Positions 4,797 through 27,875 are shown, counted from the stretch's first letter. The stretch is 32,000 nucleotides of DNA from Psychrobacter cryohalolentis K5 (GCF_000013905.1 NC_007969.1:450001-482000); one strand, 5' to 3'. Translations and numbers: made by a program. Notes: generated by a model from the letters alone, not told the origin.

Positions 4797-5237
4797 TTAG
4801 GGTCTAACGACAACATAGTCATTGGTATTAATAATAATTTCTGATGGTTGATCAACGACGATACGCACAACGTTACTATCAACGATTTGCGATTTGTAAT
4901 AGTTGTCTTCAGCAACCGTACAGCCTAAACAGCGACTCATGGCATTCCATGGTTCAACAAAGAGCTTCTGCTGTGCTTGGTCAGCATTACCGCCGATCAA
5001 AGAGAAGGGCAAACTGACGATGTAAGCGGCTGTACCTGCGACAGCTGCTATCAACTGTAATGGCTTGCCGACAACGGTATCTACAGCCATAGTCTCATAA
5101 GAGGGACCAAAATCTGTTTCATCAATTTCTATCGCTGCCAAAGCAGGTTGCATACTTGCAAAAGTTAAGCTGGCACTTATCAATACAGTTAATAGCTTAT
5201 ACTTTGCGGTGCATTTGGTGTTAGCTTGAGCAGTCAT
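4797..5237 (-). CDS. Hypothetical exported/membrane-associated protein
   Basis: 146 aa with an N-terminal signal-like segment (KLLTVLISASLTFASMQPALA/A), one further hydrophobic helix and a CLGC motif. I recognise no family. Confidence 0.55.
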   Translation of the reverse strand: MTAQANTKCTAKYKLLTVLISASLTFASMQPALAAIEIDETDFGPSYETMAVDTVVGKPLQLIAAVAGTAAYIVSLPFSLIGGNADQAQQKLFVEPWNAMSRCLGCTVAEDNYYKSQIVDSNVVRIVVDQPSEIIINTNDYVVVRP

Positions 5238-6500: not shown

Positions 6501-9041
6501 TCAGGCAACAGCGCGGCGAGCATGTAAGATACCATGCTGTTGTTCAAGCTTAGCAAGTAACTTGGATAAATGTGCTAGCCCCGACACTTCAATATGAAAC
6601 TTTAAAAAGGCAATATTATCATCATTGCTCAGGGTTTGAACTTGACGAATATTGACGTTTTCTTTATCAATGATTTGGGTTAAATCGCGCAATAAACCAC
6701 GTCTATCATAAGCTTCTATATGAATATCAACTGGCTGATAGCGACCAGATTTAATCTTCCAAGCAGCCTTGATTTCGCGTTCAGGATCACGTTCAATCAG
6801 GCGCAGATATTCAGGGCAACCACGATTGTGAACACTGACACCGCGCGATAAAGTAATGTAGCCCGCGATAGGCTCACCGTGCACAGGGTGACAGCAGCCT
6901 GCCAAACCAACTTCAATGTTATCTAAGCCATCGATTTGGATTTTGTAAGCATCAAGCTTACCTGAATCTCTTTTATCGATAATAGGGGCAAAATCTTCTT
7001 CAGATCTTTCAGGCTCTAAATGCAGCTGACGAGAGATATGACTGGTAAGCTGATTTAGACCAATTTCACCCGTCACCAAACCAACCACAATATCGTCGGT
7101 ATTGTTGACATTAAAATGTTGCGTATAATCGTTTAAATCGATGCTATTCGGATGCACCGATAGACGTTCAAGCTCTTTACTGAGCATCTGACGCCCGATT
7201 TCGATATTCTTATCACGATCTTGTTTGTTAAACCATTGACGCAGTTTTGAGCGGGCACGATTGGTATGAATATAGCCTAGTGAAGCCACTAGCCAGTCGC
7301 GATTGGGCTCACGTGAAGATTTGGTAATAATCTCAACTTGCTCGCCCGTTTTGAGCTGATAAGTTAATGGTACATAACGCTGATTGACACGCGCTGCTTG
7401 GGCGCGGTTACCGACCTGCGTATGAACATAATAGGCAAAATCCAGCACAGTCGCGCCTTTTGGCAACTCCGTAATATCGCCATCACGACTAAATATGTAA
7501 ATGCGTTCGAGTTCATCAAAATCAACCAATTGCTCTTCATCATCATATTCAACTTCCTCTAATTCATCACCAGTTGATAAAGATGAGCGCGGCTGATTAT
7601 TGATAGACAGCAGTTGACGTAAAGAACTGATTCGCTGATTAAGGTAATTGTCCTTTTTGTTTTTGAGCCCTTCTTTGTAGTTGACATGGGCACACATGCC
7701 AAGCTCAGCTTCAAAGTGCATCTCTTGAGTACGAATCTGTACTTCAAGCGATTTGTTTTCAGCGATGACCGCAGTATGGAGTGAGCGATAACCGTTAGAT
7801 TTTGGATTGGTAATATAATCGTCAAATTGCTCAGGAATATAACGCCATAACCCGTGTACCAATCCTAGCACGTGGTAACAGTCTGAAGGAGTGGTCACCA
7901 ATACTCGCAGCGCACGGATATCGTACAGCTGATCAAAAGACAATCCTTTAAGCTTCATTTTTCGATAAATAGAATAAATGTGCTTTACGCGTCCTGAAAC
8001 TTCGCCCTCAATACCAGATTCTGCTAAAGACTCGTTCAGTCTATCTTGTACACGCTGGATATAAGACTCACGCTCGCTACGCTTTTCTGATAATAGTTTG
8101 GCAATTTCTTTATAACGATCAGGGGCAAGGTAGCGAAAGGCTAAATCTTCAAGCTCCCATTTCAGCTGGGCAATACCCAAGCGATGTGCCAATGGGGCAT
8201 AAATAGTCATGACTTCACGCGCCACGCGAGCTTGTCGAACTTCATTGGAAAAGGTCAGCTCGCGCATAGCAAAAGTGCGTTCAGCAAGTTTAATCAGTAC
8301 TACTCGGACATCGTTGGTGACTGAGATCAGCATGCTATAAATATTTGATAATTGATCCCGCTGATTATTTACGAAGTGATCTTCTAAGCGCTTATTGCTT
8401 TCGATAATCTCAGACAGTTGTCCCATCGCCAAGGTATCTTTAACCAAGGTTGAGATATCGGTGCCAAACTTTTTTTCGATTTCACTAAGACTAATAATCG
8501 ATTTGCGAGCACTACGATAGAGCATGGCAGCGACAAGGGCATCTTCATCCTGATAAAGGTAAGTTAAGATATCAGTCATGCCGATACCAGTCACGTAAGC
8601 GCCCGAACGCTCCGATTCACTGGTATTCATGTGATTACGGACGAATGTACAGGCAGCGCTAAGATTGGGTACTGAATCTTGCCCAATACGCTTTGCAACA
8701 TTATCAAGCCAAGTAGGTACATCAATATTGATTTGATTTAAATCTAACGCTTCAAGCTCTTGCTGTGAAAACGCCTCGGATTCATCAAGGATGTTATCCC
8801 TTAAATAGTCATTTTCAAGATTTGAGTCATGACTGTAGTAGGCGTAATTAACAGAGCGATCAAAGGTAGTATGGAGTTTATGAGTGGCAAGTTGATACTT
8901 GATATCTAGTGGGATTTGAGCATAGCTATTGGCAGACTGGTGCGAGCGTTGACTCGCGACCAGTTGCGCTGCCAAAGTTGCACTGTCGGCTTGCGTGGTT
9001 TGTCCATCTACCAGCGGTAATCCTTCACGAATTTTTACCAT
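6501..9041 (-). CDS. relA: GTP pyrophosphokinase RelA ((p)ppGpp synthetase I)
   Basis: 846 aa. The hydrolase-like region lacks the H..HD motif, as in RelA. The synthetase core (HRLGIAQLKWELEDLAFRY, YRSLHT), TGS domain and C-terminal ACT-like domain are present. It lies directly downstream of rlmD, as in E. coli and Pseudomonas. Confidence 0.88.
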   Translation of the reverse strand: MVKIREGLPLVDGQTTQADSATLAAQLVASQRSHQSANSYAQIPLDIKYQLATHKLHTTFDRSVNYAYYSHDSNLENDYLRDNILDESEAFSQQELEALDLNQINIDVPTWLDNVAKRIGQDSVPNLSAACTFVRNHMNTSESERSGAYVTGIGMTDILTYLYQDEDALVAAMLYRSARKSIISLSEIEKKFGTDISTLVKDTLAMGQLSEIIESNKRLEDHFVNNQRDQLSNIYSMLISVTNDVRVVLIKLAERTFAMRELTFSNEVRQARVAREVMTIYAPLAHRLGIAQLKWELEDLAFRYLAPDRYKEIAKLLSEKRSERESYIQRVQDRLNESLAESGIEGEVSGRVKHIYSIYRKMKLKGLSFDQLYDIRALRVLVTTPSDCYHVLGLVHGLWRYIPEQFDDYITNPKSNGYRSLHTAVIAENKSLEVQIRTQEMHFEAELGMCAHVNYKEGLKNKKDNYLNQRISSLRQLLSINNQPRSSLSTGDELEEVEYDDEEQLVDFDELERIYIFSRDGDITELPKGATVLDFAYYVHTQVGNRAQAARVNQRYVPLTYQLKTGEQVEIITKSSREPNRDWLVASLGYIHTNRARSKLRQWFNKQDRDKNIEIGRQMLSKELERLSVHPNSIDLNDYTQHFNVNNTDDIVVGLVTGEIGLNQLTSHISRQLHLEPERSEEDFAPIIDKRDSGKLDAYKIQIDGLDNIEVGLAGCCHPVHGEPIAGYITLSRGVSVHNRGCPEYLRLIERDPEREIKAAWKIKSGRYQPVDIHIEAYDRRGLLRDLTQIIDKENVNIRQVQTLSNDDNIAFLKFHIEVSGLAHLSKLLAKLEQQHGILHARRAVA

Positions 9042-9409
9042 TGCCCACTCCTCTTAGCTATTTTGACTTGATAATAACGCCATCTACAATGCTAGAGCTA
9101 AACATGAGCTTGCTATCGATAAATGGTCAGTTATAAATCAATACAGCCGCTAAAAAATCCATTTTTTAGCAGCTATAAAATCAATTATAGGGATCTTGCA
9201 TAGAATTATGAGCGCTTAGACTCACTATGTTTTATAAATAATAAAAACAGTGACTATTATTATCGCATGTTGCGATGACAAATCAAGCAAGGCTCTGTAA
9301 TGATAGCGTTAGCCGCATATGCGAGTAACGCAGATATCATTCTTAAATTGCAGCTATTAACGCCTCTAAAAATCATAGGTTAATACCATACTCTGCCATT
9401 ACATACGGT

Positions 9410-13324: not shown

Positions 13325-16300
13325 ATGCCAGTAACAAAAACAGTAGTGGAGATGGTGCCCAGTATGGCTCACAAAAAACGTTTTGATACCAGTAGTGCTT
13401 ATGGTCAGCTGGTCATATTGGTATTTTTGCCCATCTGTTTACTCGCAGCAGTGGGCGGTATCTTGGTGTTTTATGAAACCATGCGTGCCAGTAATTCAGA
13501 GCAAGCAGTGTTGGCTGAGGCGGTACTTATCCGCTATTCACCTACGATTGCAGAGATAATACCTGAGCTATTAGAGCAAGATGCTGCCAAGATACAGATT
13601 TCAGAAAATAATAATGAAAACGCTGATGACAATAATAATAAAGTCTCGCAAGCTGCGATTGCAAAGTTAGAAGGCATCCAAGATAAACTCAGGCGTATGC
13701 GGGCAGAGCAACATGTTCAGCGTATCGCTATTATCAATCAGAGCAACGACATACTTGCGACAGTTGGCTATGGTACGGAAGAGGCGTGGCCTGTAATCGA
13801 TCCATCAGAGCGTTTTTTAGCGCAAAAATCCACTCCTATCGGTACCGCTTACGGCAGTATATTAGGTGAATTTGAGGGTCAAACACTGTGGTTATTAGTC
13901 GATATGGATAGTGAGCCGCTTTATATTGCGCGCTATCGTATCGCTATGGCATTGGTGATTACCGGTTTGTTTACATTATTAATTCTACTACTAAGTTTAA
14001 ACATTTATTCAAAACGTTGGATTGCGCCGATTTATGAGCTGCGGCTGCAATTACAGCGTACTCACGTAGATAATCTTTATCAGCCTATCCCCGTTGAATC
14101 GAATGGTGAGCTAAATCTATTACAACAAGACTTGGTGAGAACATTACGTCGTTTGTATGTCAGTTTTCAAGAGCTGAAAGAACATGCGGAGCAGACCGAA
14201 GATGATTTGCGTCTTGCTTTTGATGAAATGGAGATGCAAAACATCTCTATTCGTAATGCGCGTGATGCGGCAATCTCAACCAGCCAAGCCAAATCAGCGT
14301 TTTTAGCCAATATCAGTCATGAGCTGCGTACACCGCTCAATAGTATTGATGGTTTTATTAATTTGCTCGCGCGTCACGGTGAGCTCAATCCTGAGCAAGA
14401 CTTGTATGTACAAACCATTCGCAAATCGTCTGCGCACTTATTGGCATTAGTCAATGATGTGCTTGATTTCTCTAAAATCGAAGCGGGCAAGTTGGTACTA
14501 GATCGCCATGAGTTTGATCTTTATGACACTATCTATGATGTGGTCGATATGCTGTCGCCAGTGTCTGCAGAAAAAGGTCTGCGCATGGCGGTACTGTTTT
14601 ACAACGATGTGCCAATGCGTATCAATGGTGATGCGCTACGCCTCAAACAAGTACTAACCAATATTGTTGGCAATGCGATTAAATTTACTGATAGCGGTGA
14701 CGTGGTGGTGCGCGTCAGTTTAGATGACTATCAAGACAATTATTTGATGATTAGCGTGCAAGACAGTGGTAAAGGCATCTCGCTGTCTGATCAAAAAATG
14801 CTCTTTCAAAGCTTTAGTCAAGGAGACCCATCCATCACGCGTCAGTATGGTGGTACAGGACTGGGACTGGTCATCTCTAAACAATTAACACGGCTGATGG
14901 GCGGCGATATTGGTTTTTATGACAATATGCAAGAGAATATTTCCAATCAAGGCGCGACGTTTTGGTTTCGTATGCCAGCCCATGTTGATGTGGTAGAGGC
15001 AGCGACAGGACAAACCATTGAGCTGCCTGTATTGGCACCATTGGCAAGTGCGACTGATGAATTTAACGTTCTTATTTGGATTAATCATACCGCGTCTATA
15101 CAAGTACTGAAAGCTAGTCTGCATCATTTGCCTATTAAGCTAACCCAAGCCAATTCTTTGCCAGGTTTGCTTGAATCGTTAAAAGAGCGTGGTAATTATT
15201 GGGACTGGGTCATCGTTGATGATGATACCCAAGACGATATGATGGCGCTGCTTAAGCAAATCCGTTTACATTATCAAGGTAAACTGGCCGTCTTTGGTTA
15301 TCAAGTTGCCGCCGATCAAGCACTACTCAATCGTTACCATGCCAATATCTTGTATGAGCCATTAGACAAGAGACAGTTATATGCCATGCTAGATACGCAA
15401 AAGCGTAGTGTACCTACTGGTATTGCAGAACCACGTTGGAAAGGCGTTACCGTATTGGCAGTTGACGATCATTTGCCAAACTTACTGGTGCTTGATGCGC
15501 TGCTGAGCGAGCTTGGTATTCATGTTATTACGGCCAGTAATGGATTTGATGCGATAGAGCTAATCAGTAAACAACAAGCGAAAAATATCAAAGCTACCAA
15601 AACTGAAAAACAAAGCCTGTCGAAAAAAACTCAAATCTCAAAAGCGGTCACGCGAGATGATGTCAGTAAATCAGTGGTTAGCACGTTACATATCGAAGAC
15701 GTAACGACAGAAGAAAAGGGTAACGCACAACCTAAAGATAGGATCGATCTTATCTTTATGGATATTCAAATGCCACGTATGTCAGGGCATGAGGCGGCGA
15801 GACAAATCCGTAAGATTGAAGCCGCAGATAGTCATATTCCCATTATTGCACTGACTGCACATGGGCTAGCAGACGAGCGGGATAAATTAGTCGCTAGTGG
15901 TATCAATGATTATGTTGGTAAGCCTATTAGCCAGCCGCAGCTGCTACAAGTATTACAAAAATGGCTTGGACGTAATGCCTCGTCATCACCATTAACGGCA
16001 GAAAATGATGAGCATCCACAAGGTCTTGGCATAGCAGGTGACTTACAAGTATTAGACTCAAAAACCATTGACGCTCAAAATTCTGATGTACCAAATATGA
16101 TGCTACAACCTTCATCATCTGCGCCTAAAAATGCAGCGCCGCCTACCTATCAAATGATTCGAAGCGAGCAGGTTCAGAGTTATAAACCTACCAAGATGAG
16201 CAATGAGAAAAGAGTGAAGCGACCTCTGTCACTGAAAAAAATCCGTGATGACTACCTGCGTGACAGTCAACCACGTGAAGACTATCGGCGTGAAAACCTG

Positions 16301-16873
16301 CGCGAAACGCAGCCACGCTATGAAAATTTGCGTTTTCAAGAACAAGGGCAAGCAGCATTTGGCACGCGTTCTATTCAAACGCTCGATGATAATAAAGATG
16401 AACTATCAGTCAGTACTGTTTATTTGCAAAACGACAATAACTTAAATGCCTCTGTATTTAATACCTTGGATATTCTAGATTGGCAAGATGCATTGACGCG
16501 ATCAGCCAATAAGCCAGATCTTGCTGCCAAGCTAATCATTATGATGCTTGATACAATTAATGAGGAAAAACAAGCATTGACGCAAGCATGGGAGGCACAC
16601 AATCGCAGTATGCTCGCGCAAATCGCTCATCGGATATTGGGTGGCAGTCGTTATACGGGCGTGCCACAACTGCGCCAAGCCAGCCAAGATTTAGAAGATA
16701 AGTGCCTATTAAATATCCAACATACCACGCCTGCACAGTTTGCGATGTTAGAGCCTTATTATGAGGCTTTATTAACCGCTTTGAATAATTTGCAAACGCT
16801 TGATTTGTCTGCTTATCCGCAGCTTAATTACCATCGTCTAAGTGAAAACGATATGACTTGGAAAATGATTTAA
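13325..16873 (+). CDS. gacS: Hybrid sensor histidine kinase of the GacS/BarA type (2 TM + HAMP-like, HisKA, HATPase, receiver, C-terminal HPt)
   Basis: The H-box SHELRTPLN places His at 14318-14320. The N/G boxes read NAIKFT, DSGKGI and GGTGLGL. The receiver has VDD...FMDIQMP (Asp at 15761-15763)...KPI. The HPt motif is IAHRILGGS (His at 16628-16630). It is divergent from cysM, as gacS is in Pseudomonas. The start could instead be 13355 or 13367. Confidence 0.85.
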   Translation: MPVTKTVVEMVPSMAHKKRFDTSSAYGQLVILVFLPICLLAAVGGILVFYETMRASNSEQAVLAEAVLIRYSPTIAEIIPELLEQDAAKIQISENNNENADDNNNKVSQAAIAKLEGIQDKLRRMRAEQHVQRIAIINQSNDILATVGYGTEEAWPVIDPSERFLAQKSTPIGTAYGSILGEFEGQTLWLLVDMDSEPLYIARYRIAMALVITGLFTLLILLLSLNIYSKRWIAPIYELRLQLQRTHVDNLYQPIPVESNGELNLLQQDLVRTLRRLYVSFQELKEHAEQTEDDLRLAFDEMEMQNISIRNARDAAISTSQAKSAFLANISHELRTPLNSIDGFINLLARHGELNPEQDLYVQTIRKSSAHLLALVNDVLDFSKIEAGKLVLDRHEFDLYDTIYDVVDMLSPVSAEKGLRMAVLFYNDVPMRINGDALRLKQVLTNIVGNAIKFTDSGDVVVRVSLDDYQDNYLMISVQDSGKGISLSDQKMLFQSFSQGDPSITRQYGGTGLGLVISKQLTRLMGGDIGFYDNMQENISNQGATFWFRMPAHVDVVEAATGQTIELPVLAPLASATDEFNVLIWINHTASIQVLKASLHHLPIKLTQANSLPGLLESLKERGNYWDWVIVDDDTQDDMMALLKQIRLHYQGKLAVFGYQVAADQALLNRYHANILYEPLDKRQLYAMLDTQKRSVPTGIAEPRWKGVTVLAVDDHLPNLLVLDALLSELGIHVITASNGFDAIELISKQQAKNIKATKTEKQSLSKKTQISKAVTRDDVSKSVVSTLHIEDVTTEEKGNAQPKDRIDLIFMDIQMPRMSGHEAARQIRKIEAADSHIPIIALTAHGLADERDKLVASGINDYVGKPISQPQLLQVLQKWLGRNASSSPLTAENDEHPQGLGIAGDLQVLDSKTIDAQNSDVPNMMLQPSSSAPKNAAPPTYQMIRSEQVQSYKPTKMSNEKRVKRPLSLKKIRDDYLRDSQPREDYRRENLRETQPRYENLRFQEQGQAAFGTRSIQTLDDNKDELSVSTVYLQNDNNLNASVFNTLDILDWQDALTRSANKPDLAAKLIIMMLDTINEEKQALTQAWEAHNRSMLAQIAHRILGGSRYTGVPQLRQASQDLEDKCLLNIQHTTPAQFAMLEPYYEALLTALNNLQTLDLSAYPQLNYHRLSENDMTWKMI

Positions 16874-19269: not shown

Positions 19270-19310
19270 TTAACTGACAAATTCTATTTATTAATATTCA
19301 TCAGTAAAAA

Positions 19311-19349
19311 AGCATTCAGTACGTATTCATCGTCTGAATGCTTTTTTTT
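19311..19349 (+). terminator. Rho-independent terminator after the MFS gene
   Basis: AGCATTCAG...CTGAATGCT is a 9-bp stem followed by T8, with an A-run upstream. Confidence 0.85.
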
Positions 19350-19636
19350 ATGCTTTTTTTATTCATTGTTAATAATATCTATTTTTGGTACAAGCCTCAG
19401 TACGCTTAGCTTTATAAATAAAAATCTCGAACCTGCTTTATATATTGTATATACATTTCTAGTTATATATAAACAATTGTTTGCCTTGATAAAACAAAGT
19501 GATTGCAATGACTGAGTTGCTCAATTATTATCTAAGGTAATTTTCTGTAATTAAGTGTTTTTTATACCTTTCTTAAACTTACAGAATTGTTTTTAAAATT
19601 GATTTTTTGAATAAAATTGAGGCTTAAGGATAAGAG

Positions 19637-20509
19637 ATGAAACTATTATATCGAGCGTTACCGATTATATTGAGTGTAGGCTTATTTGGGTGTGGAAATT
19701 CTTCTACCCAAGACAACGCTAATGCAGCTGGCGCAACAGTAACGGAACATAAAGACAATTTTGTCAGTAAACTTCCTGCTACAGCACCGACATTAAAGGT
19801 GGCAATGACTGGTGATTTACCGCCTTTCTCATTTCAAGATGATTATGGCAACATGCAAGGCACTGATGTCGATTCGATTAGAGCCATTGGGGAAGAGCAA
19901 GGCTTTAAAGTCGAATTCTACAAAGAGTCATGGCAGGATATGTTCGATAGTGTGGAATCGGGAAAGCGTGATTTAGCTATTTCTGGTATTTCTTATAAAG
20001 ATGATCGTGCAATTAGATATGGTCTATCAACGCCTTACTTTTTTAATCCAGCTACTATTATGTATTTGGAAGGAAAGTTTGATATCAAAGATTTAAACGA
20101 TATCAAAGGTCTAAAAACAGGTACTTTAGAGGGTTCTAAAGAAGAAGACACTCTAAAAGAGATGGGCAGCTCAGTTGAGCTGGTTTCAAGATCTACTGCA
20201 TTTTTGGCTTATCAGGACTTAGTTCAAGGTAATACTGATGTGTTCTTATATGATATGCCAGTTTTGCAATACATTATAAAAGGTTATCCAGAACATAAAG
20301 TTAAGATTGTCCCTTATGAAGCAGCGGATGCGCCTTCAGCACAGCAAGTCGTGTTGATGGCAAAAGAAAATACCAAGCTGATCAAGAGTGTAAATGAAGG
20401 CATTACCAAGCTAAAAGCAAAAGGCACATTTAAAGAGATTGAAGAGAAATGGCTGGGTGCGACTGAGCCTGCGACCAAAAGTACTTCAAATAATCAGCAA
20501 TCGAGCTAA
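19637..20509 (+). CDS. Periplasmic solute-binding lipoprotein (family-3 / amino-acid-type SBP fold)
   Basis: Lipobox LSVGLFG-C follows a signal peptide, and AGGA lies upstream. The two-lobed PBPb pattern is present (LKVAMTGDLPPFSF, DLAISGISYKDDR, YDMPVLQY). No ABC permease or ATPase gene is adjacent. Confidence 0.8.
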   Translation: MKLLYRALPIILSVGLFGCGNSSTQDNANAAGATVTEHKDNFVSKLPATAPTLKVAMTGDLPPFSFQDDYGNMQGTDVDSIRAIGEEQGFKVEFYKESWQDMFDSVESGKRDLAISGISYKDDRAIRYGLSTPYFFNPATIMYLEGKFDIKDLNDIKGLKTGTLEGSKEEDTLKEMGSSVELVSRSTAFLAYQDLVQGNTDVFLYDMPVLQYIIKGYPEHKVKIVPYEAADAPSAQQVVLMAKENTKLIKSVNEGITKLKAKGTFKEIEEKWLGATEPATKSTSNNQQSS

Positions 20510-20521
20510 GGGACTATAAAG

Positions 20522-22723
20522 ATGGCAACCACACACAATGTCGATAATAAGCGCTATCGCAGTCTGATTATTTCGATTGCATTATTTTTATCTTTGATTG
20601 GCGCCTTGCTAGCGTTTACTTTTTATACCTCAAGCTTGCTTGAAAGAAATACAGTTTTAATTGATAAAACCAACCAAGTTGCTAATAGCGCCCAAGCGGT
20701 AATTAAAGACTTATTCGACTTGGACAGCAGTTACGGTGAAGACACCAACTCGCCGCATATACAACGAGTATTAGAGCGTTTGGAGCAAAATACAGCGCTT
20801 ATTACTAGCTCTATCACTGCTATTGAACAGGGTGGTGAAATTACCGATGTCGATGGTAAAAGCTATGACTTACCGAAGATTAATAATAACTCTCAAACCA
20901 AAGTCGCTGCGGCGAATGAGCAGTGGTTACTTTTAGAGCCTAAGATTCAGACTTACCTTAAAGACGCTGACAACATCATGGTCGATTCATCTGATGAATT
21001 GATTCAAGCGGTTGAACAGGCAAAAACATCGAGTCTACTAATTAACGATTCGTTAGACCAGCTCACCGATGAAGTGTTTATCAACGCTGAACGCCAAGCA
21101 GACACTATCCGCCTAATTCAGATATTAGGGGTTGCAGCTATTTTTGCTTACTTCCTAATCTTCGTATTTTTCTTTGTACGTCGTCTGCGTGATACCGATG
21201 CTGAAGCGTTGGCCGCTCGTCGTGAAACGCAAGAAATTATGGAAACGGTTAATACCGGCCTGTTCTTGTTGGATAAGGACTTGAATATTGGTCAGCAGCA
21301 TTCTCGCGCGCTTAACGGCATTATTGGTGAGGATAGGTTGGCAGGAGAAAACTTTGCTGATGTACTGCGTGGCCGTATTTCAGACAAGGATTTGAGAACC
21401 ACCCGTCAGTTTATCGAGCAGTTATACAATCCACGTGTCAAAGAAAAGCTGGTTGATTCTTTGAATCCTTTGCATAAAGTCATGCTACACAATGCGTCTG
21501 GAGAGGAGAGTACGACCAGTCGCTTCTTAGACTTTAAGTTTTCACGTGTTTATGAAGATAAAGACATTGCCCGTATTTTGGTCAACGTCAATGACGTCTC
21601 AGATGCAGTATATTTAGAGCAGCGCCTAGAAAAAGAACGCTCGCAAAATGATATGCAGATTGAGATGTTGACGACCATCTTAAACGTGAATCCAAAAATT
21701 ATTAATGAGTTTATTAGTAATACCAAAGCTCACATCGATAAGATGAACAATATCTTGAAAAATCCTGGTAGCTCGCAATTTGAATTAGAAGGGAAGCTAA
21801 AAGCGATTTATCGTGAAATGCATAGCCTAAAAGGTGAGGCATCTGCGCTTAAACTGCATAGCTTTACCAAAATCGCATCAGACGCTGAAGACAAGCTTGA
21901 TGCGCTGCAAAATCAAGGCAAGCTGTCGGGTAATAACTTCTTACCGCTCGCCGTGCATTTGGATGACTTATTGAGCCTATCGAATACCATTGAAACGCTA
22001 GGTGAACGTATCAATCAGGCAGCGCCAAAAGCTAACAATAATGCAAAACCTGTAATGTCAGTAAAGACTGCAACACAACCAAGTGTTGTCCAAGCTCAAG
22101 TAGCAGACGTTGCTACCATTAACATAAATGTCGATGGCGGTAATGAAATCGATTTGAGCGATGAGTCAGATGACGAGCATCTATCTTATTACCAAGATTT
22201 TGCTAAAGATATTGCTATTAGACAGGGCAAGAAAATACAGCTTAACGGTCATAATTTAGCACATATAAACATCCCTGAACGCCTCAAACAACCGATCAAA
22301 GAAATCAGTATTCAGTTGCTACGTAATGCAGTGGTACATGGTATCGAATCACCTGAAGCGCGTCAGTCAGCGGGCAAGTCTGCCATCGGTAGTATCGACT
22401 TAGAAATGCAACGTGACAGTCAAAACTTAATCATCGCACTGCAAGATGATGGTCAAGGTATTGATTATGAAGGCATTCGTTATAAGCTGATTGCTGATGG
22501 TCGTTTCACGCAAGAAGAGGCGAGTCAGATGACTCATGGTGATCTGCTCAAAACCTTGTTTGCTTCTGGTTTCTCGACCAAAGAACATGCCGATGAAGAT
22601 GGTGGTCGCGGTGTGGGCTTAGACGTTATCAAGGCGTTGGTCAAAGAGCACAACGGTAAGCTGAATGTAAATACTGAGCTTGGAAAAATGACCCGTTTTG
22701 TCATCACCTTGCCTGCTGCGTAA
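20522..22723 (+). CDS. Membrane-anchored CheA-class (HPt-type) histidine kinase: TM1, helical periplasmic domain, TM2, PAS-like region, HPt, CheA-type HATPase; no recognisable P3 dimerisation or P5/CheW domain
   Basis: TM segments lie at about aa 15-35 and 196-219. The HPt motif is EMHSLKGEASALKL (His codon 21821-21823). The CheA-P4-like block is GKKIQLNGH...LLRNAVVHGIESPEARQSAGKSAIGSIDL, with DDGQGID and GRGVGLDV. The protein ends right after the ATPase domain. Confidence 0.8.
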   Translation: MATTHNVDNKRYRSLIISIALFLSLIGALLAFTFYTSSLLERNTVLIDKTNQVANSAQAVIKDLFDLDSSYGEDTNSPHIQRVLERLEQNTALITSSITAIEQGGEITDVDGKSYDLPKINNNSQTKVAAANEQWLLLEPKIQTYLKDADNIMVDSSDELIQAVEQAKTSSLLINDSLDQLTDEVFINAERQADTIRLIQILGVAAIFAYFLIFVFFFVRRLRDTDAEALAARRETQEIMETVNTGLFLLDKDLNIGQQHSRALNGIIGEDRLAGENFADVLRGRISDKDLRTTRQFIEQLYNPRVKEKLVDSLNPLHKVMLHNASGEESTTSRFLDFKFSRVYEDKDIARILVNVNDVSDAVYLEQRLEKERSQNDMQIEMLTTILNVNPKIINEFISNTKAHIDKMNNILKNPGSSQFELEGKLKAIYREMHSLKGEASALKLHSFTKIASDAEDKLDALQNQGKLSGNNFLPLAVHLDDLLSLSNTIETLGERINQAAPKANNNAKPVMSVKTATQPSVVQAQVADVATININVDGGNEIDLSDESDDEHLSYYQDFAKDIAIRQGKKIQLNGHNLAHINIPERLKQPIKEISIQLLRNAVVHGIESPEARQSAGKSAIGSIDLEMQRDSQNLIIALQDDGQGIDYEGIRYKLIADGRFTQEEASQMTHGDLLKTLFASGFSTKEHADEDGGRGVGLDVIKALVKEHNGKLNVNTELGKMTRFVITLPAA

Positions 22724-22743
22724 TTAAGGACAATAAAAAATCT

Positions 22744-23106
22744 ATGTATAAATTAATGATCGTCGATGATTCAAATATCATTCGAAACCGTATTCAGCGC
22801 GCTTATGACTCGGGTCAATTCATGTTGGTTGCTACAGCAACCAGTGGGGTTCAAGCGCTTGAAAAGTTCAATATTCATCGTCCAGATGTGGTGACCATGG
22901 ATTTGACCATGCCGCAAATGGACGGTCTTGAGTGTATTGAAAAAATCATTGCTATCGACCCTGACGTTCGTATCTTGGTTGTCTCAGCCTTGTCTGACAA
23001 ATCTACTGGCATTGAAGCGTTATCATTGGGCGCGAGTGGGTTCTTGTGCAAGCCTTTTTCAGAAGAAGAGCTGGTAGAGTCTTTGTATGAGTTGGTACAA
23101 GACTAA
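22744..23106 (+). CDS. Stand-alone CheY-like response-regulator receiver
   Basis: 120 aa with D8-D9, phospho-acceptor D53 (22900-22902, TMDLTMP), S81 and K103 (CKPF). There is no output domain. Confidence 0.9.
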   Translation: MYKLMIVDDSNIIRNRIQRAYDSGQFMLVATATSGVQALEKFNIHRPDVVTMDLTMPQMDGLECIEKIIAIDPDVRILVVSALSDKSTGIEALSLGASGFLCKPFSEEELVESLYELVQD

Positions 23107-23152
23107 TATTGTCCAATAATTTTAATAAATACCTTATTAAAGAACACACATT

Positions 23153-23602
23153 ATGAAAGAGCAAAATTTACAAATTTTTGTGAGTATTATTACCAACTAT
23201 TTTACTCAGTTTGGTAATGATGAGTTGGTGGTCGATACGCCTTACTTGTTAGAAAACCAACAGCCAAAAGTCCATGATTATACGGGCGTCATCGGTATAT
23301 CAGGGGTGCAAAAAGGGGTGGTTTATTTTACGGCGACCACGGCGCTATTGAGCAGTATTCTAGACAGTATGGGCGAGATAGATAAAAGTGAGGACAATCT
23401 AGTCGATTTAGCAGGCGAGGTTGCCAATACGGTTTCGGGTAATGCCCGTCACGAGTTTGGTCCAGAATTTCATATCTCTGTCCCGTTTGTCTTTAAAGGC
23501 TCGCCGCAAAGTATCATTTTGCCTAAAAGTGGACGTTCTTTTATCATTCCAGTGAGTTGGCGCAGTCAAATCGGAGAGATTGTGGTTTGTTTGCAAGATT
23601 GA
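23153..23602 (+). CDS. CheX-like CheY-P phosphatase (CheC/CheX/FliY superfamily), paralogue 1
   Basis: 149 aa. The motif GEVANTVSGNA contains the ExxN catalytic pair (E 23417-23419, N 23426-23428). Length and pattern match CheX. Confidence 0.75.
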   Translation: MKEQNLQIFVSIITNYFTQFGNDELVVDTPYLLENQQPKVHDYTGVIGISGVQKGVVYFTATTALLSSILDSMGEIDKSEDNLVDLAGEVANTVSGNARHEFGPEFHISVPFVFKGSPQSIILPKSGRSFIIPVSWRSQIGEIVVCLQD

Positions 23603-23643
23603 TTACACAACCCCGTGATGATAACTATGGACGATGAACAATT

Positions 23644-24093
23644 ATGGTTAATGTAGAAAAGTTAGGCGTCTTTTTAAGTTCAATCAGTGCATTTTTTGCG
23701 CAGATTGATGCTGAGGCAGTGGTCATTGATACGCCTTACCTAAACAGTAATAAAAATGCTGTTGGTTATGATTATAGTGGCATGATTAAAATATCTGGAC
23801 CGCTTGAAGGCTGTGTCTATGTCAGTGCTCCAAGCACTATGTTGCGTGAAGTTATCAAAGTGATGGGCGAGCCTGACTCCTCTATGACGATGATGAAAGA
23901 CTTGCTTGGTGAGATGGCAAATACCATCTCTGGCAACGCTCGTACCGAGTTTGGTGCCGATTTTATTATCTCACCGCCCAAGATTATTGAAGGGGTACCC
24001 AGTATTCCTTATCTGCCAAAAGACCGCCAAAGCTATGTCACGCCATTTACGTGGCGAGGCTATAAAGCAGTTATCGGTATCAGTATTGCTTAA
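23644..24093 (+). CDS. CheX-like CheY-P phosphatase, paralogue 2
   Basis: 149 aa and colinear with paralogue 1 without gaps. The motif GEMANTISGNA contains ExxN (E 23911-23913, N 23920-23922). Confidence 0.75.
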   Translation: MVNVEKLGVFLSSISAFFAQIDAEAVVIDTPYLNSNKNAVGYDYSGMIKISGPLEGCVYVSAPSTMLREVIKVMGEPDSSMTMMKDLLGEMANTISGNARTEFGADFIISPPKIIEGVPSIPYLPKDRQSYVTPFTWRGYKAVIGISIA

Positions 24094-24111
24094 TCTTATT
24101 CTAAATTGATT

Positions 24112-24141
24112 AAAAAAACGACGTTTCACCGTCGTTTTTTT
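24112..24141 (+). terminator. Rho-independent terminator closing the SBP-kinase-CheY-CheX-CheX operon
   Basis: A7-CGACG-TTTCAC-CGTCG-T7. The A and T runs extend the stem. Confidence 0.85.
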
Positions 24142-24450
24142 ATGCATTATCATCCACTTAAACCTTATAATAGCGCTAGCAGTCGCTAAGCGTTATATGA
24201 TAAAATACAGCCCAGCTATTTTTTATCATATAGTATTCTGTACGTTCAAATCGTAGCTCAGTTTTTTCAACCAACCCATCAACCAATGACACACACATCA
24301 TGGCAAAGAATTGCTGGGTGTTTGGCGACTTGATTAATTTGCTTCACGGCTAGGTACTTTATTGATATACCTAACTCATAGCAGATGCGTGTCGCTAGAT
24401 AGGCAGTTTTTGTGATGTGGAGGCATAACCCAACCAACAGGACATTTAAC

Positions 24451-25245
24451 ATGGCTACAAAGAATCCAACCAAAATCGAAATGCGCGACTTATTACAAGC
24501 CGGCGCTCACTTTGGTCACCAAACACGTTTTTGGAATCCAAAAATGGGTCCATATATTTTTGGTGCCCGTAACAAGATTCACATCATCAACTTAGAGCAC
24601 ACGGTAAAAGCGTTTAACGAAGCATTGACTTACGTTAACGGCTTAGCTGCTAAGAAAAACAAAGTATTATTTGTTGGTACTAAGCGCGCAGCTAGCGGCG
24701 TTATCGCTGAGCAAGCAGCACGTGCTGGCATGCCATACGTTGACCATCGCTGGTTAGGTGGTATGTTGACTAACTGGAAAACACTACGCCAATCAATCAA
24801 TCGTCTAAAAGAGCTAGAAAAACAAGCTGAAGACGGTACTTTCGCTAAGCTTACTAAGCGTGAAGCGTTAGAGCGTACTCGCGATATGGAAAAACTTGAG
24901 CGTTCATTGGGCGGTATCAAAGACATGGGCGGTCTACCTGACGCAATCTTCGTTGTAGACGTAGATCATGAAGCAATCGCTATCAAAGAAGCTAAGAACC
25001 TAGGTATCCCAGTCATCGGTATCGTTGATACTAACTCTAATCCTGATAACGTTGATTACATCATCCCAGCAAACGATGATGCTATCCGTGCTGTAACTTT
25101 GTACGTAACTTCTATGGCTGATGCAATCATCGCTGGTAAAGAATACGCACAAACTCAAGCTGGTGGTAAAGCTGAGCAAGAAGCACCTGCTACTGAAGAA
25201 GCGGCTGATGCTCAAACTGAAGAAGCTGCTACTCCAGCAGAATAA
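24451..25245 (+). CDS. rpsB: 30S ribosomal protein S2
   Basis: [32 protein letters not shown] aligns with the E. coli S2 N-terminus. AGGA lies 8 nt upstream. The ORF-track start at 24412 is an upstream extension. The C-terminal tail is acidic and Ala-rich. Confidence 0.95.
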
Positions 25246-26484: not shown

Positions 26485-26509
26485 TGAACTGACCCCCATA
26501 AGTTGGACA
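26485..26509 (+). repeat. IS3-family left terminal inverted repeat (IRL)
   Basis: See the element entry; it starts with TG. Confidence 0.85.
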
Positions 26510-26529
26510 CAACTTTTGGGGGTTATTTT

Positions 26530-27048
26530 ATGAAGTATGACATCGACTTTAAACTAGGGGTGATAGCCTATTATCAACAAGGACATTCAGGCCTTGCTAC
26601 CGCAAAGCATTTTAATATTAATGATAAAGATGTTTTTAAGTGGGTAAACCAGTATTTAAAAGACGGTATACTTGCAATCAAACCTAAAACTAGCAAAGCC
26701 ATCTACAGTAGCGAGTTCAAGCTTCAAGTCCTGACTACAATGGCAGGTGAAGGTTTAAGTCAATCGCAAGCCGCCTTGAGGTTTAACATTAGCTCACCTG
26801 TGCTGATTAGTGTATGGCGCACAGCCTATGCCCGTCATGGTATGCTAGGCTTAACTGCCAAAGCTAAAGGACGACCCACTGTGAAGCACCCTTATCTCAC
26901 TGACAAACCTGATCATGAAAAGAGTATAGAAGAGATCAAACGCGAGAATGAGTATCTACGCGCGGAGAACGCCTATTTAAAAAAGCTCGATGCCTTGCTC
27001 AAAGAGAGGAAAGCCAATCAGACAAAGCAAGGCTCGTCAAAGGACTAA
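26530..27048 (+). CDS. IS3-family transposase OrfA (HTH plus leucine-zipper-like C-terminus)
   Basis: The likely start is MKYDIDF at 26530; the ORF opens at 26503, inside the IR region. HTH-like segments are followed by a heptad-like EIKRENEYLRAENAYLKKLDALL. Confidence 0.85.
   Translation: MKYDIDFKLGVIAYYQQGHSGLATAKHFNINDKDVFKWVNQYLKDGILAIKPKTSKAIYSSEFKLQVLTTMAGEGLSQSQAALRFNISSPVLISVWRTAYARHGMLGLTAKAKGRPTVKHPYLTDKPDHEKSIEEIKRENEYLRAENAYLKKLDALLKERKANQTKQGSSKD
26979..26985 (+). promoter_or_regulatory. Programmed -1 ribosomal frameshift heptamer A_AAA_AAG (orfA to orfB)
   Basis: In the orfA frame the codons read TTA AAA AAG (L-K-K). The -1 frame is open from here into orfB (KKARCLAQREES...IARSSFYYHVHALK). 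An 8-bp stem, GCCTTGCT 26992-26999 / AGCAAGGC 27026-27033, begins 6 nt downstream. Confidence 0.8.
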
Positions 27049-27875
27049 GAGATCAGCATCCGCTAGCTTTACTATTACTCATTGCAGATATAGCAAGAAG
27101 CAGCTTTTACTATCATGTGCATGCATTAAAAGCTGATGATAAGTATGCCGATCTTAAACAGCGTATCAGTGACATCTATCATTACCATAAAGGTCGATAT
27201 GGCTATCGTAGAATCACTCAAACGCTTAAGAACGAAGGAATAAGATACAACCACAAGCTCATCGCACGGCTTATGAACGAGCTTAAACTTACCGCGAGAA
27301 TCAGACGACAGAAGTATCGATCCTATAAAGGTCAGTGTGGCGTCATTGCCAAGAATAGAGTCAAACGCAGGTTCAGAGCGAAAGCGCCCAATCGCAGGTG
27401 GTTTACTGACATCACAGAGTTTAAAGTCGGTGATGAGAAGTTGTATCTGTCTCCTATACTAGACTGCTTCAACAATGAGATCATCAGTTATACGCTCTCA
27501 AGACGACCCGTATATGACTTGGTGAAACAGATGCTAGATAGTGCACTTAAGGGCATACCTACAAAGCGCAAGGAGACACTGACGCTGCATTCAGATCAAG
27601 GGTGGCACTATCAGATAAAACCGTTTGCGACAACGCTTGAAACGCATAAAATTAAACAGAGTATGAGTAGAAAAGGCAACTGCTTAGACAATGCGCTGAT
27701 GGAGAGCTTCTTCGGTACGCTAAAATGTGAAACTATTTATATTGAAAAGCCATCGAGTATTGAGGCTTTAGAGAAACAGATTCATAACTTTATGCTCTAC
27801 TACAATCATGAGAGAATTCAGATGAAACTAAAAGGACTAAGCCCTGTACAATACAGAACTCAGTCCTTGATTTAA
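26979..27875 (+). CDS. IS3-family transposase OrfB (DDE/RNase-H-like catalytic domain), expressed as an OrfAB fusion (26530..27875) by -1 frameshifting
   Basis: The frame is -1 relative to orfA. DDE-region motifs are present: WFTDITEF, LHSDQGWHY and NALMESFFGTLKCE. The ORF-track start at 27117 is an internal GTG. Confidence 0.85.
   Translation, partial: KKARCLAQREESQSDKARLVKGLRDQHPLALLLLIADIARSSFYYHVHALKADDKYADLKQRISDIYHYHKGRYGYRRITQTLKNEGIRYNHKLIARLMNELKLTARIRRQKYRSYKGQCGVIAKNRVKRRFRAKAPNRRWFTDITEFKVGDEKLYLSPILDCFNNEIISYTLSRRPVYDLVKQMLDSALKGIPTKRKETLTLHSDQGWHYQIKPFATTLETHKIKQSMSRKGNCLDNALMESFFGTLKCETIYIEKPSSIEALEKQIHNFMLYYNHERIQMKLKGLSPVQYRTQSLI

Follow-up and report, generated by a model that had tools for sequence, protein, structure and literature searches.

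The 32,000-nucleotide (nt) stretch of Psychrobacter cryohalolentis K5 DNA analysed here (NC_007969.1:450001-482000; the window, with positions counted from its first letter) carries five consecutive genes, for a solute-binding lipoprotein, a CheA-like kinase, a CheY-like receiver and two CheX-type phosphatases. These probably form, at a probability that we put near 0.6, a self-contained, amino-acid-gated His-Asp pathway with a rapid CheX-driven reset and an unlinked output. Judged by the sequences and neighbourhoods of its relatives, the cassette is a decorated member of a widespread kinase-receiver-CheX triad and not a Psychrobacter oddity, the binding protein and the second CheX being the only lineage-specific additions to the core. 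An earlier note, made from the DNA alone, had already named these protein classes, and the profile search that it proposed bears them out, with Pfam matches above the gathering score throughout (SBP_bac_3, Hpt, HATPase_c, Response_reg and CheX). Its label 'phosphorelay' has to be dropped, since the predicted route is a plain His-to-Asp one and not His-Asp-His-Asp.

The kinase matches Hpt at 1.9e-6 (28.5 bits, cutoff 24.6) and HATPase_c at 6e-15, and its ATPase domain corresponds to the P4 domain of Thermotoga maritima CheA both by sequence (7e-29, 104 bits) and by fold (TM-score 0.84). With the T. maritima P3P4 construct the match is confined to P4, and no P2 docking, P3 dimerisation or P5/CheW-like domain was found in the chain, which ends with P4 at residue 733. 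None of the cassette proteins gave a Pfam match to CheW (PF01584, E up to 0.1), H-kinase_dim (PF02895), the HisKA family or MCPsignal, and for lack of a HisKA-family match the kinase does not belong with the class I (HisKA/DHp) sensor kinases. In NCBIfam, where no curated family covers the kinase or the CheX proteins, the kinase matches CheA, and both CheX proteins match the Thermotogales CheX, below threshold only.

Hydropathy analysis indicates two membrane segments in the kinase, at residues 12-40 (TM1) and 194-223 (TM2). In an AlphaFold2 model that draws on 27 family members and has a mean predicted local distance difference test score (pLDDT) of 80, the periplasmic part between them (residues ~41-193) takes the form of a bundle of helices plus a small hairpin, a long helix traverses the second membrane segment, and the cytoplasmic part is laid out as a PAS-like alpha/beta domain (246-358), a four-helix HPt domain (391-500), a disordered linker (502-550) and the P4 ATPase (552-733). 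The predicted phospho-accepting residue His434 and its neighbours Lys437 and Gly438 are invariant or at least 90% conserved in the 27 family members, in which the N, G1, F and G2 boxes of the ATPase are all invariant. By sequence and model, the kinase is thus a class II (CheA-type) transmitter without P2, P3 and P5 that is itself a membrane receptor.

The receiver (Response_reg, 2e-28) is a single domain with the complete CheY-like feature set, namely the acidic pocket, the Ser/Thr, the aromatic switch and the Lys, and is 34% identical to E. coli CheY. None of its residues D8, D9, D53, S81, F100 and K103 varies in 74 family receivers, all of which also conserve the alpha-4 region, and the stretches LMIVDDSNIIR, PDVVTMD, SAL-DKAT and GFL-KPF are kept family-wide. 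The two CheX proteins, 40% identical to each other, match PF13690 at 3e-18 and 66 bits (CheX1) and at 4e-20 and 72 bits (CheX2), against a cutoff of 27. Each has one D-x3-E-x2-N site (D85/E89/N92 in CheX1, D86/E90/N93 in CheX2), a motif that is invariant in 75 family CheX sequences and that was reportedly described by Park and colleagues in 2004 as the active-site signature of CheC, CheX and FliY; CheC carries two such active sites and CheX one. A structure search made with CheX1 only matched the solved CheX/CheC-like proteins 3iic (8e-10) and 3hm4 (1e-7), with a weaker similarity to 6vpw (E 4e-6), presumably the CheX of Vibrio vulnificus. As far as sequence and model can tell, the catalytic equipment is intact for phosphoryl transfer from ATP to His434 and on to Asp53, followed by CheX-assisted hydrolysis.

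In the mechanism that we propose, the lipoprotein would capture an amino-acid-like ligand in the periplasm and dock on the helical bundle of the kinase, from which the signal would reach HPt and P4 by way of the second membrane helix and of the PAS-like domain, which is highly conserved. Since the CheA-type catalytic boxes are intact and the H-x-x-K-G motif is present, P4 would be able to phosphorylate His434 with ATP, and the phosphoryl group would then move to Asp53 of the receiver. Hydrolysis of the phospho-receiver by CheX1 and CheX2, possibly as a heterodimer, would keep it short-lived, and its level would therefore track kinase activity on a short time scale. A single receptor-kinase polypeptide would in this way replace the array of methyl-accepting chemotaxis protein (MCP), CheW and CheA, presumably dimerising via its membrane, bundle and PAS helices instead of P3. 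The phospho-receiver, having no output domain, would finally bind a protein encoded elsewhere, other than the flagellar switch.

The binding protein is of the polar-amino-acid type (SBP_bac_3, 4e-33). Among solved structures it is nearest to the GlnPQ binding domain and AncQR, of the glutamine/arginine type, and it retains the Arg and Asp for the alpha-carboxylate and alpha-amino groups of the ligand; a signal peptide with the lipobox L-F-G-C is kept in all alleles. An exported binding protein whose stop codon lies 12 nt before the start of a kinase gene, with no ABC permease or ATPase gene nearby among the other window open reading frames (ORFs) of at least 100 amino acids (aa) that were judged real genes (n=20, all scanned against Pfam), is the arrangement of a binding-protein-dependent sensor, and we propose that it serves as a periplasmic co-sensor of the kinase. 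This role is supported by relatives in which the kinase is accompanied by a different periplasmic protein, of the Peripla_BP_4 or the TonB_C/TPR kind. Most family members have no adjacent SBP_bac_3 gene, and L100-L102 have theirs downstream of CheX, both of which would suit an ordinary transport protein that lies upstream by chance or is a target under the control of the system. We consider this distinctly unlikely in view of the missing transport genes and the short gap, of the unrelated binding-protein families found at the same position in relatives, and of one Psychrobacter locus, L070, in which the gene was lost together with a replacement of the kinase periplasmic domain.

The L070 case belongs to a wider pattern of variation among 80 Psychrobacter loci (L001-L080, viewed with 10-kb flanks). 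By identity to that of the window, the binding proteins sort into three classes, at ~82-95% (31 loci), ~58-76% (39 loci) and ~24-39% (7 loci), around 88%, 65% and 37% respectively, and in the third (C) class the kinase periplasmic domain is only ~50% identical while the PAS-like domain is still 81-90% identical. Two strains that are ~95% identical in regional DNA fall to 60-64% over ~400-600 bp inside the binding-protein gene. In L070 the flanks are ~92% identical in DNA, the receiver is identical and the cytoplasmic part of the kinase is ~98% identical (catalytic domain 98%, HPt 96%), yet the binding-protein gene is absent and the periplasmic domain unalignable. The unalignable stretch runs from upstream of the binding-protein gene position to about codon 225 of the kinase, where the second membrane helix gives way to the PAS-like domain. 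Overall, the allele variation maps to window 19350-21200, mainly in L011, L017 and L069-L080, with recombination breakpoints at this point of the kinase and within the binding-protein gene, the remaining operon staying at ~92-95% DNA identity. These sequence comparisons show that recombination swaps the input module while the signalling chassis stays constant, and the L070 comparison suggests that the binding protein and the kinase periplasmic domain travel together, a co-variation partly explicable by linkage because the genes are adjacent.

Outside the input module, conservation within the genus is strong. In almost all of the 80 loci with enough sequence, the same five genes lie between the MFS transporter gene and rpsB, the exceptions being L070 and two loci with different flanks (L072, L080). 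Conservation is highest in the receiver (92-100% identity, except 83-85% in the two most divergent loci). In comparisons within a sensor class, pairwise ratios of non-synonymous to synonymous substitution (dN/dS) are 0.01-0.14 for all five genes and ~0.015 for the receiver, values that are approximate and, if anything, overestimated at these saturated synonymous sites; only when sensor classes are compared with each other does the binding protein depart from these low ratios. Purifying selection acts on all five genes. A separate case is the metagenomic Psychrobacter locus L093 (L093:5100-10130), where ~1.8 kb splits the kinase gene and contains a 435-aa opposite-strand ORF, probably a transposase. 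The binding-protein gene of L093 is frameshifted into two ORFs; with an undamaged receiver gene and two undamaged CheX genes, this locus is by its sequence a natural knockout of the input half.

Beyond Psychrobacter, an exhaustive profile-free search with the kinase found 35,696 proteins at E <=0.001 and 1,184 representatives (50% identity clusters) at E <=1e-30, and the best 150 relatives are mostly ~700 aa long and 30-55% identical, matching over most or all of their length. Two of three word-indexed protein searches and a genome-collection scan returned Psychrobacter matches only, and a plasmid tblastn search gave only P4-domain matches to ordinary CheA genes and no plasmid-borne family member. 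The gene context of distant relatives was taken from the representative search, from contig inspection of five distant members and from a metagenome scan that added 80 loci. All five inspected members, two of the Cellvibrio type (one of them P0311, Cellvibrio fontiphilus), one Moraxella metagenome-assembled genome (MAG) and two others, have the order kinase, receiver (120-127 aa) and CheX (~150 aa). Among 76 non-redundant loci, with GC contents of 0.33-0.72, a receiver follows the kinase in 69 of the 70 with room for it and a CheX in 59 of 64. CheX ends the unit, because the genes past it are unrelated from locus to locus, and no MCP or CheW gene lies beside the triad in the diverse loci examined. 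The survey of distribution and neighbourhood suggested by the earlier note has thus revealed a nearly invariant triad inside the Psychrobacter cassette, with a known spread over Psychrobacter, the Moraxella MAG, Cellvibrio and metagenome lineages covering the same range of GC.

The genes upstream of the kinase vary by lineage, around this nearly fixed core. At 65 loci they include a TonB_C/TPR protein of ~700 aa (35 loci), a Ser/Thr kinase of ~440 aa that is receiver-fused where tested (20 loci, with two copies in L086), SBP_bac_3 (4 loci) and Peripla_BP_4 (3-4 loci, these without CheX). The sensor itself varies as well: many distant kinases carry, at the same position, a PilJ/NarX-type domain (PF13675) with a G-R-Q-R-M-L-S-Q-R motif, and the Psychrobacter kinase gives no PF13675 match and has lost the motif. 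The PilJ motif and an adjacent binding protein did not overlap (0/9 and 0/9, with neither in 58 loci), a result that is not significant.

Some of these arrangements deserve a description of their own. In many high-GC metagenome lineages the ~700-aa TPR/TonB_C protein and the ~440-aa Ser/Thr kinase stand together on the same strand ahead of the triad; loci with the Ser/Thr-kinase arrangement are L086 (L086:4560-7088), L113, L116, L120, L128, L132, L137-L146, L154, L158, L159 and L162. The N-terminus of this Ser/Thr kinase is a receiver domain in the scorable cases and may be a second phospho-acceptor for the HPt-P4 kinase. In L085 (L085:3272-7176), L110, L155 and L103, a Peripla_BP_4 (sugar-type) gene precedes a related HPt-P4 kinase and receiver, with no CheX directly downstream, and in the Moraxella MAG this sub-variant occurs in tandem with a full kinase-receiver-CheX triad.

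Two CheX genes are found only in Psychrobacter and its nearest relatives L096 and L097 among the 76 non-redundant loci. The single-copy CheX proteins in other lineages are nearer to CheX1 than to CheX2, and CheX2 has orthologues only in the Psychrobacter loci and L095-L098; by these relationships CheX1 is the orthologue of the near-universal family CheX and CheX2 an old lineage paralogue. In L095 and L098 (~8815-9270; kinase 57-58% identical), the single CheX is nearer to CheX2 than to CheX1 and follows a 230-nt gap, so CheX1 may have been lost there.

The earlier note had also stressed that an aflagellate host would lack FliM, the usual target of CheY. The host is indeed Psychrobacter, as it had supposed, the kinase being 100% identical to a P. 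cryohalolentis protein. In 16 Psychrobacter genomes cheY and cheX are present and the other chemotaxis and flagellar genes absent, except for cheR in K5 (PMC4754876), and the RAST subsystem 'Motility and chemotaxis' stands at 0% in K5 and three other species (PMC5833320). That part therefore stands; the missing FliM is nevertheless not the crux, because the triad family is not peculiar to aflagellate hosts, its core being present also in Cellvibrio. The same reports, with the interrupted kinase and frameshifted binding protein of one metagenomic strain, could make the cassette look like a decaying, functionless remnant of an ancestral chemotaxis operon after flagellar loss. We regard this as extremely improbable and effectively refuted by the purifying selection described above, by catalytic residues that are all intact and by the recurrence of the same P5/CheW-less architecture across ~1,184 clusters, including flagellated Cellvibrio. 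Because that architecture is conserved across the family, the kinase without P5/CheW is an ancestral design and not a truncation.

The main rival to our reading concerns the receiver. The small receiver and CheX might serve only to drain phosphoryl groups from HPt, with the true output being a response regulator elsewhere, and we hold this possible but doubtful for Psychrobacter and credible for lineages with receiver-Ser/Thr-kinase fusions. There is a documented precedent in the Dif system of Myxococcus xanthus (PMC4671073): DifE phosphorylates the sink DifD, whose dephosphorylation is accelerated by the CheC homologue DifG, and the regulator that really acts downstream is EpsW. HPt-type kinases commonly serve several receivers, and the 20 relatives with a receiver-Ser/Thr-kinase fusion just upstream, in the same orientation, still have the small receiver and CheX. 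On the other hand, no second receiver lies beside the cassette in Psychrobacter or Cellvibrio, and the receiver keeps its Ser81/Phe100 switch pair and, in all 74 family members, the alpha-4 region, as expected of a signalling receiver, although this is not decisive.

It could also be supposed that the receiver controls type IV pili, in twitching or DNA uptake, in the way of PilG and PilH, so that the cassette would be a motility-type circuit. A fast-reset CheY/CheX circuit would be typical of behavioural control, and type IV pili are in use in Moraxellaceae such as Acinetobacter, points of general background from which one can only infer. However, pil genes are absent from the window and, for the 80 Psychrobacter loci, from their 10-kb flanks, nor is there any conserved linkage of the core triad to pilus genes in the 76 diverse loci, and we consider a pilus output unlikely.

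Several points weigh against the self-contained, amino-acid-gated pathway that we prefer. Its output step is pure inference. The adjacency of the binding-protein and kinase genes means that their co-variation could reflect a shared recombination tract instead of physical interaction, and the binding-protein classes A and B (88% vs 65%) show no difference in the kinase periplasmic domain. Finally, about 30% of the relatives have a receiver-Ser/Thr-kinase fusion in the cluster, an arrangement compatible with a branched pathway whose output is something other than the small receiver.

Compared with known systems, the cassette does not belong to the chemosensory pathways by their defining features, but it would work like a CheA-CheY-CheX core. 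A P1-type HPt and P4 are present; MCP, CheW/P5, P3/P2, CheR/CheB and a flagellar or pilus output are missing in the window. With the Thermotoga/spirochaete core it shares a class II kinase, a single-domain CheY and a single-site CheX; unlike in that core, the kinase is transmembrane with a PAS-like domain and lacks P2, P3 and P5, and the MCP, CheW, CheR, CheB and flagellar target are absent. The likeness to Dif lies in the CheA-type kinase, the single-domain receiver, the CheC-family phosphatase and, for Dif, a non-taxis output, and also in that the adjacent receiver may be a phosphate sink with an unlinked output regulator; Dif, however, has an MCP (DifA), a CheW (DifC) and a full-length CheA, and its phosphatase is CheC-like and not CheX.

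On the input side, LuxP-LuxQ, TorT-TorS, ChvE-VirA and the maltose-binding protein (MBP) on the four-helix bundle of Tar are binding-protein-dependent sensors. The cassette resembles them in having a binding-protein gene beside a membrane sensor without transporter genes, the sensor domain being a helical bundle. In contrast to those sensors, which are class I HisKA kinases or chemoreceptors, its transmitter is HPt plus P4. To our knowledge, what is understood of class II (CheA-type) kinases concerns only soluble enzymes under the control of MCP-CheW arrays. A gammaproteobacterial CheX is on record in Vibrio vulnificus, where it acts as a CheY-P phosphatase on the flagellar chemotaxis CheY of a motile host (PMC12887009); its gene context, zur-cheX-yjbQ, is unlike that of the cassette.

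No published study of the triad was found in the full-text literature, a coverage from which most subscription journals are excluded, and no characterised orthologue emerged from it, in agreement with the earlier note, which knew of no characterised system of this composition; the only mention of the cassette genes that we came across is a passing remark (PMC4754876). Taking the comparisons together, we suggest tentatively, at somewhat less than even odds, that the triad is an unrecognised widespread pathway class, in which a class II kinase acts as a transmembrane receptor, CheY and CheX provide fast kinetics and the output is unrelated to motility, the Psychrobacter input being re-tuned by cassette exchange. 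A CheA-type core fused directly to a membrane sensor in a large family would represent a second way to control such a kinase. As the family always brings along its own CheY and CheX and has members in flagella-less bacteria, it would also point to a CheY-like protein whose target lies outside motility. In Psychrobacter, a cassette of only five genes, a culturable, non-motile, cold-loving host, natural sensor swaps and a natural knockout make the input, wiring and target directly testable.

The five plus-strand ORFs are listed with their boundary signals in Table 1. Their spacings of 12, 20, 46 and 41 nt and the two bracketing terminators agree with the description in the earlier note, and because of this tight spacing and the terminators at both ends, a single operon between the MFS transporter gene and rpsB is plausible. 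The 5′ terminator has a 9-bp core stem lengthened by A/U pairs and followed by T8, and its fold reaches -19.5 kcal/mol (z -7.6; 0/200 shuffles as good), but it was missed by a consensus scan because of its long loop. The 3′ terminator, of the form A7-stem-loop-stem-T7, reaches -14.2 kcal/mol (z -4.9; no shuffle equally stable) and was picked up by the consensus scan on the minus strand, consistent with its bidirectional A7/T7 shape. The AT-rich leader of 367 nt ahead of the binding-protein gene contains a candidate promoter, a weak one, as promoter-like matches in the region are no commoner than in shuffles.

Table 1. Genes, predicted phosphorylation-site codons and boundary signals of the five-gene cassette, in window positions
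Feature	Position	Strand	Remarks
Intrinsic terminator of upstream MFS transporter gene	19306..19349	+	5′ boundary of five-gene unit
Candidate sigma-70 promoter TTGCAA-17-TATTAT	19503..19531	+	9/12 consensus match, weak
Solute-binding lipoprotein gene (SBP_bac_3)	19637-20509	+	290 aa
Receptor-type CheA-like kinase gene (Hpt + HATPase_c)	20522-22723	+	733 aa
Codon of His434, predicted phospho-accepting histidine	21821..21823	+	motif H-S-L-K-G, translation check
CheY-like receiver gene (Response_reg)	22744-23106	+	120 aa
Codon of Asp53, predicted phospho-acceptor of the receiver	22900-22902	+	sequence comparison
CheX1 gene	23153-23602	+	149 aa
CheX2 gene	23644-24093	+	149 aa
Bidirectional intrinsic terminator, operon end ahead of rpsB	24111..24142	both	hairpin + A7/T7

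No MCP, CheW, CheR, CheB, CheZ, flagellar, pilus or GGDEF/EAL gene is present among the scanned ORFs of the window, which upholds the view in the earlier note that receptor-coupling, adaptation and output components are absent from the 32 kb, and an Rfam search of the window gave no RNA family. The remaining ORFs are mostly housekeeping genes (OmpA, BipA, MscL, Fpg, RelA, RlmD, CysK, rpsB, tsf, HflX and others). Apart from the cassette, signalling is represented by one gene only, at 13325-16873 (+), for a GacS/BarA-like hybrid kinase of 1,182 aa with HisKA, HATPase_c, receiver and Hpt domains; 2.8 kb separate it from the cassette downstream, and it is syntenic in Psychrobacter metagenome loci, with no evidence of a functional link. 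A 146-aa ORF between mscL and fpg (4797-5237, minus strand) has no Pfam family. Just past tsf, two consecutive ORFs at 26503-27875 (+) with HTH_28/HTH_Tnp_1 and rve integrase domains make up an IS3-family insertion sequence. Lastly, the longest ORF of rpsB starts from a GTG at 24412, and the conserved S2 sequence (MATKNPT...) starts from the ATG at 24451, which is probably the true start.

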